From assembly GCA_035578045.1 (NCBI GenBank), contig DATJWP010000104.1:283-64282 (forward strand): a DNA stretch of 64,000 nt, read 5' to 3'. The position numbers and the translations under genes were made by a program. Each line of letters starts with the position of its first letter. Within the stretch, counting starts at the first letter, position 1. This stretch comes from Polyangia bacterium. GTDB lineage: Bacteria > Myxococcota_A > Polyangia > Fen-1088. Below, piece by piece: positions 6,574-35,196 of this stretch. The notes beneath the pieces are model-generated. The model worked only from the letters and a program-made list of their open reading frames with translations. It made no database searches and was not told the DNA's origin.

Positions 6574-8789
6574 CGCCCCTGGCTGCTCTGCTGGCGGCGG
6601 TGCTGGTCATCGACGGGGGCGTCGATGCCGGCGCGCCGGATCGCGACGCCGGGACGGACGCAGGAGACGCGAGCCTGAGCCCGATCGACGCCGGCGCTTC
6701 CCACGTCGAGGTCCCCGAGACCAAACCGCCCGAGCTTCGACTGGCCGCGCCGACCGGTCGCATGGCTGGCCACGTCCTGGCCAAGGGCGGGCGAGAGGTC
6801 GTGCCCGACGCTTCCTTGCTCGTCGACGGTGTCTCGGTCGGCGTGAGCGACGACGGTGGTGATTTCTACTTCGCCCTCGCCTGCGGTCCCAGGACGCTGA
6901 CCGTCCGGGCCGCCGGCTTCGAGGCGATGACCACCACGGTCGACGCCTGCGCGGAGCCGCGGGAGCCGCTCACGCTCCGGCTGGCCCCCACCCCCGGCCG
7001 CGCGCGTCGCGAGACCGTCGTCCGGGCCAAGGCGCCGCAGCCGGTGGTGCGGCTGGTGGGTGAGGAGCTGACGCAGACACCCGGCGCGCTGGGGGACCCG
7101 CTTCGCGTGATCGAATCGCTGCCCGGCGTGGCCGCCGTCGCCTGGCCCGCGCCGGTCTACGCGGTCCGCGGCTCGAACCCCGGCAACACCGGGTTCTTCC
7201 TGGACGGCATCCAGATCCCGGCGCTGTTTCACTTCGCGCTCGGCCCCTCCGTCATCAACCCGTACTTCTTCCACAGCCTGGACTTCTATCCGGGCGGCTA
7301 TCCGGCGCGCTACGGGCGCTACGTGGGTGGAATCGCCACCGCCGAGACCCAGGCTCCGTCGCTGGACCAGACGCACATGTCCGTCGACGTTCGCCTGTAC
7401 GACGCGGGGGCGATGGTCTCCGCGCCCATCGCCGGCGGAGCGGTCGCCGTGGCCGCCCGATACTCGTTCACGGGCGAGCTGGTGACGGCGCTGCGCGAGG
7501 ACATCCGGCTGCAGTACTGGGACTACCAGCTGCGCGCCGATCGGCGCTTCGGACCGCTGCAGGTCACGTTGCTGGCGTTCGGCTCGGGCGACTCGTTCTC
7601 GCCCAACAAGACCGACGACCAGAACGAGGTGGACCTGGACTTCCATCGCGTGGGACTGCGGGCCTCCCTGCCCGCCGCGGGCGGCCTGCTGCAGGGCTCG
7701 GTGGTGCTCGGCAGCGATCACACCCGCGCGCCCATCGAGAGCACCTACCCGATCACCGTCGACGCCGTCAGCCTGGCGCCGCGCCTGTCGTACCAGCGCT
7801 CCGCCGGGCCGGTGACCATGGTGATCGGCTTCGACGGCCAGCTCGCGCGGTACACGCCCACCGTCGTGGGGATCGCGGTGCCGCCAGGGCCCTGGGACAT
7901 CGCCATCCCGCGAGACGCCCGCATGATGGCCGGCTACGCCTCGGCGACGGTGGCGGCGGGCCGCCTCACGCTGACCCCCGAGATCCGGCTCGACACCTAC
8001 GAAGAGAACGGCACCTACGCCCAGGAGCTGGGCCCGCGGCTGACCCTGGGGCTCGCGCTGAACGACGAGACGTCGTTGCAGGCCAGCGGCGGCCGCTTCA
8101 CGCAGCTCCCCAGCCTGCCGCTTCAGATCCCGGGTGTCGAGGCCTTCGGGCTGAAGCTGCTGGGGTTGCAGACCTCGTGGCAGGGATCGGTCGGCGTCGA
8201 GACCAGCCACTTCGCCGCGGCGAAAGTGAGGGTGACGGGGTTCGTCCAGAAGTACGTCCTGACCGATCTCAGAAGCCCGTCGGCGAGCGACCTCGATCCC
8301 CTGGACAGCGAGTTCCTGGCCAGCCGCCCGGCGCTGTCCTACGGCGTCGAGCTGCTGGCGCGCCGCGCGCTGACGGAGCGGCTGCACGGCTGGCTGTCGT
8401 ACACGCTGTCCAACAGCATCCGATCCTACGGCGGCGGCGCGGTCGGCCCGTCGGACTGGGACCAGCGGCACATCGTGAACCTGGTGCTCGGTTACCGCGT
8501 CCGCCGCTACACCCTGGGAGCGCGGTTTCACTTCAACACCGGCCGCCCATTCTTTCTCCAGGACCCCAACGCCGACACGTACCAGCGGCTGCCCAGCTAC
8601 TACCAGCTGGACCTGCGCGTCGACCGCCCCGTCGTCTACGACAAGTTCACGCTGAACCTCTACGCCGAGCTGGTGAACGCGACCTTGACCTCCGAGGTTT
8701 TCAGCATCGACCAGCCGAGCGCGGGCGTGCTGCAGCCCAAGAGCTACCGGATCGTTCTGCCGTCGATCGGCGCCCGCGCCGAGTTTTAG
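6570..8789 (+). CDS. TonB-dependent receptor-like outer-membrane beta-barrel with an N-terminal carboxypeptidase-regulatory-like domain
   Basis: 739 aa. Plug-like segment [17 protein letters not shown]...[24 protein letters not shown], followed by a long beta-rich region and a C-terminal aromatic residue (ARAEF). The GTG start overlaps the upstream stop. Confidence 0.85.
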
Positions 8790-31216: not shown

Positions 31217-31306
31217 AGGCCTCAAGCTGCCTCTCGCCCGATCGAGCTTCCGGGCTATACTGCTTGACAGGTGGGTGGGGGTCGTACTTCTCTGGCCCTT
31301 CTCGCA

Positions 31307-31891
31307 ATGGACAACAAGGAGCGTACGTTTCTGGAGACGATGTCGAGGGCCCTCGTCTCTCTGCCCTTCGACCTCAAGATCCTGCTGGAGGCGGTTGCCG
31401 ACTCCGATCTCGAGCGCCCCGTGCGCGAGATGGCGGTCGGGACGGTCGTGCACATGATCACGCCGAAGGACGGGAACGTCGAGGCGCCCCTCCGCTTCGC
31501 CGAGGACGTGGTGCAGCTCCGGCTGGCCACCGCCAAGATCGCCGCCGAGGGCGGCGAAGGCGCGCCGGCCTTCCGCGATCGCTTCGCCGAGGACTTCTCG
31601 CGCTTCGAGCAGGAGCTGGTCCTGTTCCGCAGCGTGCTAGGCGACGACATCGTGGACTGGCTGGACACCCGCTGGGGCTCGTTCGGCAAGGGCGTCTACG
31701 CCAAGAAGAAGATCTCGCAGTTCGTCGACGACGAAGAGCTGGGCACGTTTCTGTACGACGAAGGCTCGAAGTTCGGGACGCTCTACCCGATCAGCGAGAA
31801 GTCGCTGGCCGGTCGCGTGAAGCAGGCGCAGCCGTTCATCGATCACCTTGCGCGCAAACGCGATCAGGACAAGAAGAAGATCACGTCGTAG
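31307..31891 (+). CDS. hypothetical protein
   Basis: Coding-like ORF with high GC3 and balanced composition. The start was chosen at MDNKERTF (track start 31271). No family recognised. Confidence 0.55.
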   Translation: MDNKERTFLETMSRALVSLPFDLKILLEAVADSDLERPVREMAVGTVVHMITPKDGNVEAPLRFAEDVVQLRLATAKIAAEGGEGAPAFRDRFAEDFSRFEQELVLFRSVLGDDIVDWLDTRWGSFGKGVYAKKKISQFVDDEELGTFLYDEGSKFGTLYPISEKSLAGRVKQAQPFIDHLARKRDQDKKKITS

Positions 31892-31921: not shown

Positions 31922-32845
31922 GTGTCGCGCGGCTTGATAGCAGCCGGCGCCGGGCATGATTCGCCGGCGGCGTTGCTGGACGTGGCCGTGGCGGTGGCGC
32001 AGGGAGCGCCGCCGCCGCCGCCTGAGATCACCGCGGCCGCCCGCCCGGCGGCGCCGCTGCTGGCGCACCTGCCGCCCGACAAGCTGCGTGGCGCGCTCGA
32101 GGCGGTGATCATGGCGCGCGCGCTGGACGCCGGGCTGCAGTGGATGCACGAGGCCGGCGTGCTGGGCGTCCTGCTGCCGGAGCTGGAGGCGACCGTCGAC
32201 TTCTCGCAGGAGGCCGGACGGCGCCACAAGGACGTCTGGGAGCACACCAAGCTGGTGGTGGTCCAGTCGGTGGCGAACCCGATCGTCCGCTGGGCGGCGC
32301 TGCTCCACGACATCGGTAAGGTCCCGACGCGGGTCCTGCTGCCCGACGGGCGCGTGACGTTTCACCGCCACGCCGAGGTCGGCGCGCGCATGTGGGATCC
32401 GATCGCCCGCCGGCTGGCGTTCGACAAGACCGAGCGGCGCGACATCCGGTTCCTGGTCATGAACCACCTGCGCGCCAACGCGTACGAGCCCGGCTGGACC
32501 GACGCGGCGGTGCGGCGGTTCGACAAGGAGATGGGCGAGCACCTCCAGGATCTGCTCGACCTCTCCTGCGCCGACGTCACGTCCCGGCGGCCCGGGCGGC
32601 GGCAAGAGGCGATCGACAACATCCACGCGCTCAAGGACCGCATCCTGGCGATCCGTGAGCTGGACGCGCGCATCCCACCGCTGCCGGCCGGCCTGGGAAA
32701 CGCGATCATGGAGACCTTCAACCTGCCGCCCTCCAAGCGGATCGGCGACCTGCGCAAGCTGTGCGAGGACGCGGTCGAGCGGGGCGAGCTGGAAGAGCGC
32801 CGCGACGCCGCCTACTACATCGAGTTCCTGCGCGAAAAGATCTGA
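31922..32845 (+). CDS. HD-domain protein related to the C-terminal part of CCA-adding / poly(A) polymerase family enzymes
   Basis: 307 aa. HKDVWEHTKLVV...AALLHDIGKVPT...FHRHAEVG HD motifs. No N-terminal nucleotidyltransferase head is visible. GTG start. Confidence 0.75.
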   Translation: MSRGLIAAGAGHDSPAALLDVAVAVAQGAPPPPPEITAAARPAAPLLAHLPPDKLRGALEAVIMARALDAGLQWMHEAGVLGVLLPELEATVDFSQEAGRRHKDVWEHTKLVVVQSVANPIVRWAALLHDIGKVPTRVLLPDGRVTFHRHAEVGARMWDPIARRLAFDKTERRDIRFLVMNHLRANAYEPGWTDAAVRRFDKEMGEHLQDLLDLSCADVTSRRPGRRQEAIDNIHALKDRILAIRELDARIPPLPAGLGNAIMETFNLPPSKRIGDLRKLCEDAVERGELEERRDAAYYIEFLREKI

Positions 32846-32848
32846 TGC

Positions 32849-33505
32849 TTACCCGGTTAGCGCCCGCAAAAGGTCCCGTCGAAACGCCTGAAACGCACCG
32901 AGCCCATCGAGTACGGACAGACTGGAGAGGTTCGCGAGGCTCGACCTCACCTCACTCGGCACCGCGTTTCGCGACTGCGATATCCACTCGGCCAGAAATT
33001 GCTTCGCTTGACCAGGCTGGAGCGCCTCTATCGCTGGCGGCTGCGCTGGAATCGGTTCGAGAACCTTAGCGACGGCGCCGTGATCGGCGATCAGCCACCC
33101 TTCAAACTCGGGTGCCGGAACCGCGACAACGACACGTACACTGATTCCCTCTTCAATGTAGCTCTCAAGTAGTTGCTTGCGGCCGGACGTGCCGTCGTCG
33201 TCGACGAACACCACGGCTAGATCTGGCCGTCTCTCCGGACCGGGCCAGGTCAGCAGCCGCCGCAGCGAACGCTCAACCAGCAGGTCACTTCCTCGCGGAT
33301 GACGGCCCGTTCGTAGGCGTAGGGGCGAGAGAAATCGGACCGCGTTCTGGGGTACGCCGGTGCCGTGAGCAATTGCACGCCGCACCAAGTGATGCGCTGG
33401 ACCAAGATGAGACTCTTCAAGTGCTTCACCCGGAGGGGGAAGCCAACTCTGTTCGCCGACTGAGTCAGCGGGCCCCTCGGCGTACACGACGACGCGAACA
33501 GACAC
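32849..33505 (-). CDS. DUF4276-like protein with Toprim-like E / DxD motifs
   Basis: From GTG 33505: (M)SVRVVVYAEGPADS..., LAVVFVDDDGTSG and VRVVVAVPAPEFEGWLIADHGAV. The gene starts 7 nt after the ATPase stop. The track ATG at 33574 would overlap the ATPase gene by 62 nt. GC content is low. Confidence 0.7.
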   Translation of the reverse strand: MSVRVVVYAEGPADSVGEQSWLPPPGEALEESHLGPAHHLVRRAIAHGTGVPQNAVRFLSPLRLRTGRHPRGSDLLVERSLRRLLTWPGPERRPDLAVVFVDDDGTSGRKQLLESYIEEGISVRVVVAVPAPEFEGWLIADHGAVAKVLEPIPAQPPAIEALQPGQAKQFLAEWISQSRNAVPSEVRSSLANLSSLSVLDGLGAFQAFRRDLLRALTG

Positions 33506-33512
33506 CTGTCGA

Positions 33513-34400
33513 CTATCCGCCGGGAACGCCGCCAAGCGCACCAGAAAGCCAAAGCCCGCCCAACGATCCTTCATACTCGCGAACGGACTTCGCCCAGTCG
33601 GCCGACTCAGTAGGCGCCCGTTCGACCTGTGTCGTCCCGTCGGATTCGCGGCGGCTCACAAACCTGACTTCATGGGGGAGAGCAAATTCCAACAGCTCGG
33701 CAGAGTGAGTTGCGAGGATCACCTGTATGGTTTTCGGGCCGAGTCTACCCAGGGCAAGATCGCGTAAAGACTCGATCAGCTTGCCAAGCAAATAGGGATG
33801 GAGCCCACGTTCGGGTTCTTCAATCGCGATCACATCGACCGGTTGTGGCTGATGCTCCACCAGCAACAGGGCCAACATCAGCATGCTGCCGTCCGAAACC
33901 TGAGTAGGCTCGTACCAGAGCTCAGGACTCCATCGATCCTGAAAGACCAGTCGATGGTTGCCTGGATTTTGAGGCGATGGCCGAGTAGCCACGTCGCGGT
34001 ACATGGGAACGAGCTTGGTGAAATGTGCGACGAGCGCGTTCTGTTCCTCTCGTGTCAGGGTCGCAAACACGTTGGTGAGATTCGTGCCCGTCTCGTCCAG
34101 CCTTCTCGCCTCCTGAACGACATTCGGGTATCGAATCTTCTCCACGTCCAAGTGCAGCAACTGGAAAGCATGGCTCGCTGACCGGATAGGCGTCCGACGC
34201 CCCTCGGAAATCACTTCGATGACCGCGGAGCCTTTGTTACGCCAGGCGTTTGTGCCGTCCAAAGCAATATCGGGACGAAGGGTCGATATGAGCGAACTCT
34301 TCCCGGACGCGTTAGGACCAACGAGGATGGTCAGGGGTTCGAAGTCTACGTCGACGCTGGCAAGGCATCGAAAGTTCCGAATTATTGCCCGCGAAATCAT
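33513..34400 (-). CDS. compact ABC/SMC-type (AAA_21/AAA_15-like) ATPase
   Basis: 295 aa. MISRAIIRNFRCL, Walker A GPNASGKSS, signature-like QVSDGSMLMLALL, Walker B VDVIAIEEPERGLHP and H-loop ILATHS. GC is about 53% against about 70-80% in the flanks. Confidence 0.85.
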   Translation of the reverse strand: MISRAIIRNFRCLASVDVDFEPLTILVGPNASGKSSLISTLRPDIALDGTNAWRNKGSAVIEVISEGRRTPIRSASHAFQLLHLDVEKIRYPNVVQEARRLDETGTNLTNVFATLTREEQNALVAHFTKLVPMYRDVATRPSPQNPGNHRLVFQDRWSPELWYEPTQVSDGSMLMLALLLVEHQPQPVDVIAIEEPERGLHPYLLGKLIESLRDLALGRLGPKTIQVILATHSAELLEFALPHEVRFVSRRESDGTTQVERAPTESADWAKSVREYEGSLGGLWLSGALGGVPGG

Positions 34401-34638
34401 CCGGGAAACAGTTTACCAGCGGGAGCCGAACAGCGCGAATCACGCAGGACGCTGAGCGGTCTGCCAATCCTCTGCGCCGCGAATCAGGCGCCCTATCGCC
34501 GACGCTCTCGAGCGGCTCGCCTTCTTCGATCCGCGCCACTCCAACGCCGCTTGTGGCCGAAACGCCAGAGCGAGCATCGCGAGCGGGTTCCTTGGCGGGA
34601 GCGCAGGCTTTGCCCGCGCGGAGCGCCTCACAAACGGG

Positions 34639-35130
34639 GTGGGCCCGCGGGAGGGAACACCCTCCCGCGGAGCGGAGCGCGGCGACGCCGGTCGAGCGCT
34701 GCTGTTCGCAAACCGCAGCCGGCGTGAGGTCGAGCAGGCGCTGGTGCTGCTGGAAGGCGCCTGCGGCGGCGGCGACTTGCGGGCCTGCAGGACTCTCGGC
34801 GACTGGTACGGGCAGAGCCAGGACCGGACGTCACAGGCACGCGCCCAGGACCTCTTGACGCGGGCCTGCAAGGGCGGCCTGGCAGACGCCTGCCCCCTCC
34901 CCGCTGACGCGCCCACGCCCCGAGCGGCGACGACAGCGGACTGCAGCCAGACGACGTGCCAGGACCGTCAGGCCATCCGAAGAAGCACTGACCGCCCTAA
35001 TCCCAGTCGCCGACGCCCTCGAGGGGCTCGCCCTTTTCCCAGTGCTCGAGGTTGCGCTTTTGCCGGCGCAGGTTGCGGACCTGGAACACCAGCCAGACGA
35101 CACACCCCAGAGACACCAGCAGCACGATGA
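34639..35130 (+). pseudogene. Sel1-like Cys-rich repeat remnant
   Basis: EQALVLLEGACGGGDLRACRTLGDWYGQSQDRTSQARAQDLLTRACKGGLADAC resembles Sel1-type repeats. There is no convincing start, and the same frame stays open upstream to about 34501. Third-codon GC collapses after about 34960, where the opposite strand looks coding. Confidence 0.3.
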
Positions 35131-35149
35131 TCAGCGCGGGGAGCGGCAT
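34997..35149 (-). CDS. small (50 aa) single-pass membrane protein, not in the ORF track
   Basis: MPLPALIIVLLVSLGCVVWLVFQVRNLRRQKRNLEHWEKGEPLEGVGDWD: one hydrophobic helix plus a charged tail. 45 of 50 codons end in G/C, which is genome-like. No clear Shine-Dalgarno. Confidence 0.45.
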   Translation of the reverse strand: MPLPALIIVLLVSLGCVVWLVFQVRNLRRQKRNLEHWEKGEPLEGVGDWD

Positions 35150-35196
35150 TCGGGAAGAGTTTGAACCGGGGCGGCGGCGAATGCCAGACTCGGGCC

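Follow-up and report, generated by a model that had tools for sequence, protein, structure and literature searches.

The 64,000-nucleotide (nt) stretch analysed here (the window; GCA_035578045.1, contig DATJWP010000104.1), from an uncultured soil Polyangia bacterium (Myxococcota), contains a 1645-base-pair (bp) cassette (32846..34490) with two intact minus-strand genes. Gene 1 (33513..34400; 295 amino acids (aa)) encodes a compact ATP-binding cassette (ABC) ATPase of the OLD/PtuA/GajA type, and gene 2 (32849..33505; 218 aa) encodes a DUF4276 protein with a predicted Toprim fold. The pair is already catalogued in PADLOC-DB as HEC-01A/HEC-01B, a candidate anti-phage system, and is not a new system. 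Within HEC-01 it belongs to a compact stand-alone subclade, and our analysis adds the gain of the cassette, the compact clade itself, the coupling of the two genes and their stand-alone setting. By analogy with OLD, PARIS and Gabija, we consider it probable that the pair is a defence system in which an ATP-gated Toprim nuclease acts against phages or other invading DNA.

The cassette and its two genes

The cassette has a G+C content of 60.0%, the minimum across the whole 64 kb. The mean of the window is 70.4% with a standard deviation of 2.6% (1645-bp windows), which places the cassette at z = -4.0, a drop well beyond chance. The same drop is visible in short segments, with 32/60 G+C at 33781-33840 and again at 34261-34320 vs 49/60 at 32041-32100 in the neighbouring HD-domain gene, and in the G+C content at third codon positions (GC3), which is 0.65 and 0.63 in the cassette genes vs 0.89-0.95 in seven neighbour genes. 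Gene 2 starts at GTG 33505 on the same strand, 7 nt past the TAG stop codon of gene 1. It ends at a TAA codon (32849-32851, minus strand) that is separated by only 3 nt (TGC) from the TGA stop codon (32843-32845) of the convergent HD gene. We take GTG 33505 as the right start because an alignment with 43 homologues (202-260 aa long, 38-57% identical) supports it. The mechanical open reading frame (ORF) call and the ENA/public annotation start gene 2 at ATG 33574 instead, giving a 241-aa form; we rejected this start, as 41 of the 43 homologues have nothing corresponding to its first 23 residues, whose codons would overlap the invariant tail of the ATPase. A 90-nt operon leader (34401..34490, minus strand), which extends from the ATPase start to a repeat copy described below and still lies within the low-GC insert, is the presumed promoter region, and no terminator-like signal was found for the operon.

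The ATPase (~33 kDa, calculated) matches AAA_21 (E 4.8e-21) and AAA_15 (E 9.9e-21) in Pfam, and in PADLOC its best match is the HEC-01A model PDLC04182 (E 2.1e-38, 130 bits), followed by eight more HEC-01A models at E <= 4e-27. It contains a Walker A motif (GPNASGKSS, residue 28), an ABC signature-like motif (SDGSM, residue 169), a Walker B motif (IAIEEPE, residue 191) and an H-loop (ATHS, residue 230). The corresponding residues K34, S169-D170-G171, E194-E195-P196-E197 (Walker B/D-loop) and H232 are kept in 44-45 of the 45 clade members, and because of this conservation the enzyme should be catalytically competent. The AlphaFold model (pLDDT 91.5) resembles Septu and retron PtuA, the SMC and Rad50 heads and Thermus OLD in Foldseek, all with probability 1.0. 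Among solved structures, the clade profile picks up class 1 OLD (TsOLD, 8e-18), PtuA (9e-14) and GajA (4e-6). The clade to which gene 1 belongs consists of compact ATPases of ~300 aa (292-342 aa, median 304), mainly in Myxococcota and Planctomycetota. In the alignment with PDLC04182, residues 42-70 of gene 1 (~29 residues) appear to replace ~145 positions of the model (~44-188).

The C-terminal tail of the ATPase (residues 284-295, WLSGALGGVPGG; DNA 33513-33548) is predicted to be disordered, with pLDDT below 50, and yet W284, L285, G287, G290, G291, V292 and P293 are identical in 45/45 clade sequences. Disorder combined with invariance is the pattern expected of a docking peptide, which makes the tail a candidate for docking the DUF4276 partner or for mediating self-assembly.

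Gene 2 encodes a protein of 24 kDa carrying VVVYAEGP at residue 5, VVFVDDDG at residue 98 and EFEGWLIAD at residue 133. E10 (in Y-A-E-G) follows strand 1 and D102-x-D104 follows strand 3 (predicted strands E3-8 and E96-100). D102, D104, E133 and E135 are invariant among 44 sequences, E10 is present in at least 90% of them and W137 is invariant or nearly so; H38, R43, G72-S73 and the nearly invariant K168 are likewise conserved in the family. The AlphaFold model (pLDDT 96, predicted template modelling score 0.92) has one confident match in the PDB, 6NK8_B, the Toprim-containing C-terminal region of Burkholderia pseudomallei OLD (BpOLD), and no viral structural relative in BFVD. The modelled fold and the Toprim superfamily motifs, which are present, identify gene 2 as a predicted Toprim-fold protein and a predicted metal-dependent nuclease.

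The family assignment of gene 2 follows by transitivity and not from a direct match: the DUF4276 model PF14103 scores 14.7 bits (E 0.036) on the 241-aa form, below its gathering threshold of 30.2 bits, and gives no match at E <= 0.01 on the 218-aa form, while 39 of the 44 subfamily members match it (best 6.6e-11). The HEC-01B model PDLC04210 covers gene 2 in part (residues 121-217, E 3.3e-8), and HEC-01B models match all 44 subfamily members (best 1e-13). An exhaustive search with the subfamily profile of gene 2 returned 269 clusters at E <= 1e-30, rising to 2414 at E <= 0.001 (clustering at 50% identity).

An HEC-01A match, an adjoining HEC-01B match and same-strand adjacency with the 7-nt spacer together place the pair in HEC-01, an assignment at the level of matches to PADLOC-DB models. 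The initial annotation, made from the sequence alone, had described a low-GC island holding a compact ABC/SMC-type ATPase and a DUF4276-like Toprim protein as separate polypeptides. Its G+C counts proved exact, its coordinates, spacers, protein lengths and start codons hold as given, all the motifs it quoted fall on invariant columns of the two families, and the split into two ORFs is the rule in the clade. The novelty of the pairing that it implied fails, because existing database models name the pair. As the pairing is present in both PADLOC (HEC-01) and NCBIfam (Mad3/Mad4) and representatives have been assayed, finding it here has little discovery value in itself; its function is not refuted thereby.

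Insertion site and distribution of the compact clade

We compared the locus with 80 related Polyangia loci that carry the neighbouring HD gene (55-90% protein identity), and found no ATPase or DUF4276 match in any of them. In 25 of the 80, the order HD gene, small ORF, Fpg gene and SpoU gene is kept, with the Fpg gene oriented as in the window. The interval from the HD gene to the Fpg gene measures 214-278 bp in 11 of these 25, in which the site is empty, and is filled with 0.5-3.5 kb of unrelated cargo in the other 14. At the DNA level, homology to 14 relatives stops at 32845/32846, exactly at the stop codon of the HD gene, and resumes at ~35001; therefore, the variable segment is 32846-35000. 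In a relative with an empty site (L004), the two homology ends lie ~17 bp apart. The presence of the pair is polymorphic. Composition and distribution identify the cassette as foreign and, in our reading, recently acquired. Recent arrival fits the G+C content of the pair, which is below that of its flanks in 6/6 loci measured, the window copy being the least ameliorated.

The site itself (window 32846-35196; loci L004-L034, L052 and L080), between the HD gene and a 50-aa ORF upstream of fpg, is a recurrent insertion site in Polyangia. It is occupied differently even where relatedness is closest (HD identity 87-90%). The cargo of the 14 filled loci includes genes for an alpha-amylase-family protein (L005), a Sel1-like repeat protein of 390 aa (L006, L007), a protein with a PIN domain (L012, L013), an acetolactate-decarboxylase-like protein (L018), an esterase (L020, L031, L032) or phosphofructokinase (L034). 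The site is an insertion-tolerant gap between convergent genes that has been struck repeatedly in this lineage, a rearrangement hotspot. The horizontal acquisition and the rearrangement hotspot proposed in the initial annotation are both borne out, as is its recognition of a Sel1-like remnant beside the cassette; the comparison across related genomes that it called for indicates that the pair is no conserved syntenic core feature, and its composition is foreign.

The variable segment is composite, consisting of the low-GC cassette, a copy of a 37-nt repeat and a stretch with the Sel1-like remnant. Copy A of the direct repeat (34491..34527), at the inner edge of the cassette, duplicates the 3' end of the small ORF in diverged form and is 84% identical to copy B (35002..35038), the native 3' end of the 50-aa ORF, where synteny resumes. 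Relatives carry the native copy only. This extra copy of flanking DNA suggests that the cassette may have come in along with part of the corresponding locus of a diverged relative. The two copies flank the Sel1 remnant and not the cassette. Around the cassette we found no convincing terminal inverted repeats or short target-site duplication, the 37-nt direct repeat being the only significant repeat, and alongside it there is no recombinase gene or tRNA gene. No integrase gene lies near the cassette, the window as a whole contains no tRNA genes or Rfam matches, and within 10 kb on each side of the pair there are metabolic and housekeeping genes only.

Beyond the Polyangia relatives, a metagenomic survey of the compact clade provided 80 loci, of which 53 leave 700 bp or more of sequence 3' of the ATPase gene. 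A same-strand DUF4276 gene directly 3' of the ATPase gene is present in 50/53, with a median gap of 15 nt. The partner is intact in 40 of the 53, spread over more than one frame in 4, partial in 6 and missing in 3. In about a quarter of the clade loci, the ATPase is retained beside a partner that is cut short, broken in frame or missing (L098, 2325-2507; L123, L124, L128, L134, L141, L160, L163, L169, L171 and L174; L154, L159 and L168), and some of these cases are perhaps assembly errors. In the Polyangia-related genome of L098, for instance, the ATPase is kept and the partner is down to ~56 codons; in L096 the partner is split between frames, and the same assembly fragments other genes too.

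Five annotated loci contain a lone ATPase-then-DUF4276 operon: L002 (a metagenome-assembled genome), L003 and L085 (Planctomycetota), L084 (Hyalangium rubrum) and L097, the closest metagenomic relative. Their neighbours are unrelated housekeeping or regulatory genes. In L084 and L096, both of the Myxococcaceae type, the pair shares one syntenic position, downstream of a Lactamase_B gene and upstream of a PAS/GAF histidine kinase gene; it seems to have been resident for longer in that lineage than in the host of the window. Carriage by phages or prophages found no support, since the ten matches in viral contigs were distant ATPases (27-41% identical over parts) with no DUF4276 partner or tail motif.

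Several features around the cassette are recorded here in their own right. The Sel1-like repeat gene remnant (34669..34893, plus strand) corresponds to residues 39-119 of the 390-aa protein of L006 and L007 (tblastn, 53% identity over 81 residues, E 2e-19), and the ORF that encloses it has a GC3 of 0.70 and a G+C content at second codon positions of 0.71, unlike real genes here. In L006, and likewise in L007, the ORF for the 390-aa Sel1-like protein (L006, 7089-8261, plus strand) overlaps an opposite-strand ORF (7478-8449, minus strand) for a 323-aa protein with a lipoprotein-like signal; both are protein-like, neither has a Pfam match, and only one can be real. The 50-aa ORF (34997-35149, minus strand) has one predicted hydrophobic helix (MPLPALIIVLLVSLGCVVWLVFQV...), a GC3 of 0.90 and DNA conserved among relatives, and looks like a real small membrane protein gene; its similarity to the N-terminal region of PhoR is weak (E 7e-4, below threshold). 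Upstream of the HD gene, a hypothetical gene (31271-31891, plus strand) has 64.6% G+C and a GC3 of 0.89. This gene is native, its low G+C content coming from its amino-acid composition, and does not form a second island. A functional tie of the pair to the convergent HD gene or to fpg was considered and rejected, as both are syntenic core genes in relatives without the pair.

Proposed function and competing explanations

If the pair is a defence system, the ATPase, with its Walker A, signature, Walker B and H-loop motifs intact, would form ATP-sandwich dimers and hold the Toprim partner inactive, possibly via the C-terminal tail (W-L-S-G-x-L-G-G-V-P). A cue of infection, whether a phage protein, abnormally structured DNA or altered nucleotide pools, would shift the state of the ATPase. 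The freed or activated Toprim enzyme would then cut tRNA or DNA through the E10 / D102-x-D104 / E133, E135 metal site, and this cleavage would keep the phage from replicating, probably at some expense to the cell. The data show what domains the proteins have, that their motifs are conserved, that the two genes are strictly coupled and that the cassette is foreign and polymorphic in its presence; for complex formation, trigger, substrate and the abortive outcome, we draw on analogy with systems that have been studied. In PARIS, the ATPase scaffold keeps AriB until a phage protein triggers its release, and AriB then cuts tRNA (PMC11464382, PMC12409363); for P2 Old, an inactive tetramer is reported to open its Toprim site when destabilised and then to cleave tRNA (bioRxiv 10.64898/2026.07.10.737580). 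Any particular trigger or substrate is far less probable than the defence role as a whole. This role is consistent with the turnover of the pair, in which foreign GC3, absence from the 80 related loci, a polymorphic site and decay of the partner form a pattern typical of defence genes. It is also consistent with a survey of cold-seep genomes (PMC12881386), which reports that a HEC-01 cluster picked at random made E. coli B resistant to one or more of T4, T5 and T7.

A number of points weigh against this reading. The positive HEC-01 report is sparse in detail, and the HEC-01 representative of Payne et al. gave no protection in E. coli against the phages tried (bioRxiv 10.1101/2024.01.29.577857). 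A recognisable defence island or Hma/MADS locus was found in 0/8 annotated neighbourhoods. Nor was a close relative found among the 2.9 million viral contigs searched. On the structural side, the match of gene 2 to 6NK8_B is of moderate quality (Foldseek probability 0.99, E 2.7e-3, TM-score 0.46/0.48), and the sequence of gene 2 finds no relatives in the PDB (best E 0.58, noise). No match to the sigma-70 consensus lies upstream of the operon, although the consensus used is of the E. coli type and uninformative for Myxococcota. Finally, sensing is where the analogy is weakest, as the ATPase has no counterpart of the large insert that gives AriA, PtuA and GajA their scaffold or sensor surfaces; direct sensing of the nucleotide state is one possibility.

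The same data can be read in other ways. The pair could be a selfish addiction cassette of the toxin-antitoxin (TA) type, in which a Toprim toxin is restrained by the ATPase with no net anti-phage benefit. The cassette is indeed very compact (1645 bp, ending 3 nt off its neighbour's stop codon) and moves without a recombinase gene, the pair has only unrelated genes around it in every locus examined, a gene for a PIN-domain protein, a typical toxin, occupies this site in L012 and L013, and Pfam annotates AAA_21 as 'putative AbiEii toxin, type IV TA system'. However, it is the presumed toxin gene that is most often decayed beside an intact ATPase (the reverse case was not scanned for), although loss of the toxin is expected only after, or together with, the antidote becoming dispensable, and one HEC-01 system did protect against phage. 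We therefore rate addiction without any defence benefit as rather unlikely, bearing in mind that addiction and abortive-infection defence are not mutually exclusive. Decay also bears on the idea that the cassette is inert passenger DNA, unexpressed and heading to ruin: homologous cassettes elsewhere are often broken, the adjoining Sel1-like gene is already a remnant, the GC3 is unameliorated, and neither a promoter-like nor a terminator-like signal was found for the operon. Yet both frames in the window are full length with every family-invariant catalytic residue intact, and the promoter scan, limited as it was to one foreign consensus, says little here, so that we hold the passenger explanation to be quite unlikely.

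If the pair had a housekeeping function, repairing DNA or maintaining the chromosome like RecF, RecN, SbcCD or the archaeal OLD-family ATPase Cran1, the proximity of fpg would be meaningful. ABC ATPases of the same fold include Rad50, SMC and RecF, the ATPase gene lies ~800 bp from fpg, and an archaeal OLD-family protein has been described with a cell-cycle role and no apparent antiviral role (PMC12796447). Such a role is contradicted because the pair is absent from 80/80 related loci, including the 25 syntenic ones; the foreign codon composition, the different and unrelated neighbourhoods in other genomes and the frequent decay point the same way, and we consider repair very improbable.

Within the defence interpretation, the compact clade might be a distinct, autonomous and minimal OLD-like system, with an ATPase of ~300 aa without the insert, strict coupling to its own DUF4276 subfamily, no dedicated sensor and a nuclease docked to the tail. 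Such a system would be common in large-genome soil phyla (Myxococcota, Planctomycetota) and would sense infection, e.g., via nucleotide levels. We find this version doubtful; if true, no smaller ABC-ATPase/Toprim immune module would be known, and it would offer a simple model of the way this large superfamily couples ATP state to nuclease release. Independently of that version, the locus is an unusually clean natural case of cassette gain, for which relatives show the site empty, the cargoes that fill it instead and the precise junctions. The compact stand-alone form occurs widely in Myxococcota and Planctomycetota, phyla hardly covered by phage-defence experiments, and it offers a small, tractable version (33 kDa and 24 kDa) for the biochemistry of ABC ATPase control over Toprim nucleases.

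Comparison with known systems

HEC-01 (Hma-embedded candidate 01) was described as an ABC ATPase with a TOPRIM partner within Hma systems, and its HEC-01B protein resembles the BpOLD Toprim with the metal site kept (Payne et al., bioRxiv 10.1101/2024.01.29.577857). The window pair has the same order of an ABC ATPase gene followed by a TOPRIM-like gene, HEC-01 gives the best PADLOC matches of both proteins, and gene 2 too resembles the Toprim region of BpOLD (6NK8). It differs in that its ATPase is ~100 residues shorter than the best-matching HEC-01A models, its partner matches the HEC-01B models weakly (3e-8, partial), and neither the window pair nor the pairs in seven other loci are Hma-embedded. 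Embedding in Hma or MADS was rejected on the same eight loci, as no such genes lie near the pair in any of them.

DUF4276 has been assigned to the Toprim superfamily, and Mad4 of MADS belongs to it (PMC12065111). In MADS (methylation-associated defence system; Maestri et al. 2024), Mad3 is an AAA_15/21-type ATPase and Mad4 a DUF4276 protein, which resembles the pair described here. In NCBIfam, the best matches of the window proteins are MAD3 (93.4 bits vs a cut-off of 420 bits) and MAD4 (14.8 vs 160 bits). No MADS methyltransferase or other MADS component was found within 10 kb of the pair, the only methylase in that range being a SpoU RNA methyltransferase, whose gene is also syntenic where relatives lack the pair. 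The pair is not MADS because the scores lie far under the equivalog cut-offs and no other MADS gene is nearby. The MANTIS preprint, which came up in the MADS search, concerns an unrelated BREX-like system.

With class 1 and 2 OLD proteins (P2 Old, TsOLD 6P74, BpOLD 6NK8) and with GajA, the pair shares the ATPase clade, the IEEPE-type Walker B motif and the Toprim fold class. In OLD and GajA, in contrast, the ATPase and Toprim domains make up a single 510-680-aa polypeptide that includes a dimerisation insert, and here there are two genes and the insert is missing. Because the domains are on separate polypeptides, the pair is not a classical OLD or Gabija system, and no GajB-like helicase gene was found near it. 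Septu and retron PtuA is the best structural match of the ATPase (Foldseek E 3.5e-12, query TM-score 0.53-0.64), and Septu PtuA/PtuB is likewise a two-gene combination of an ATPase and a nuclease. Unlike gene 2, PtuB is an HNH nuclease, and PtuA, at 465-550 aa, forms hexamers via domains absent here.

The initial annotation had also called the pair PARIS-like, which holds as an architectural analogy and not as membership. Membership in PARIS or AbiL was rejected, as gene 2 has no match to DUF4435, AriB or AbiLii (Pfam at E <= 0.1, and PADLOC). The pair is not PARIS because of this missing DUF4435/AriB match and because gene 1 matches the AriA models (2.8e-22) more weakly than HEC-01A (2.1e-38). 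AriB is a DUF4435 Toprim protein, and AriA is a protein of ~53-55 kDa with a large scaffold vs ~33 kDa here; no AriA chain of PARIS ('class 4 OLD') is among the structure matches of the clade profile at E <= 0.001. The tree of AAA_15/21 ATPases in the PARIS study nevertheless includes DUF4276 among the partners (PMC11464382). As in the window, AriA and the Toprim nuclease AriB are separate polypeptides encoded in one operon, and PARIS supplies the precedent of a Toprim tRNA nuclease released from an ATPase scaffold.

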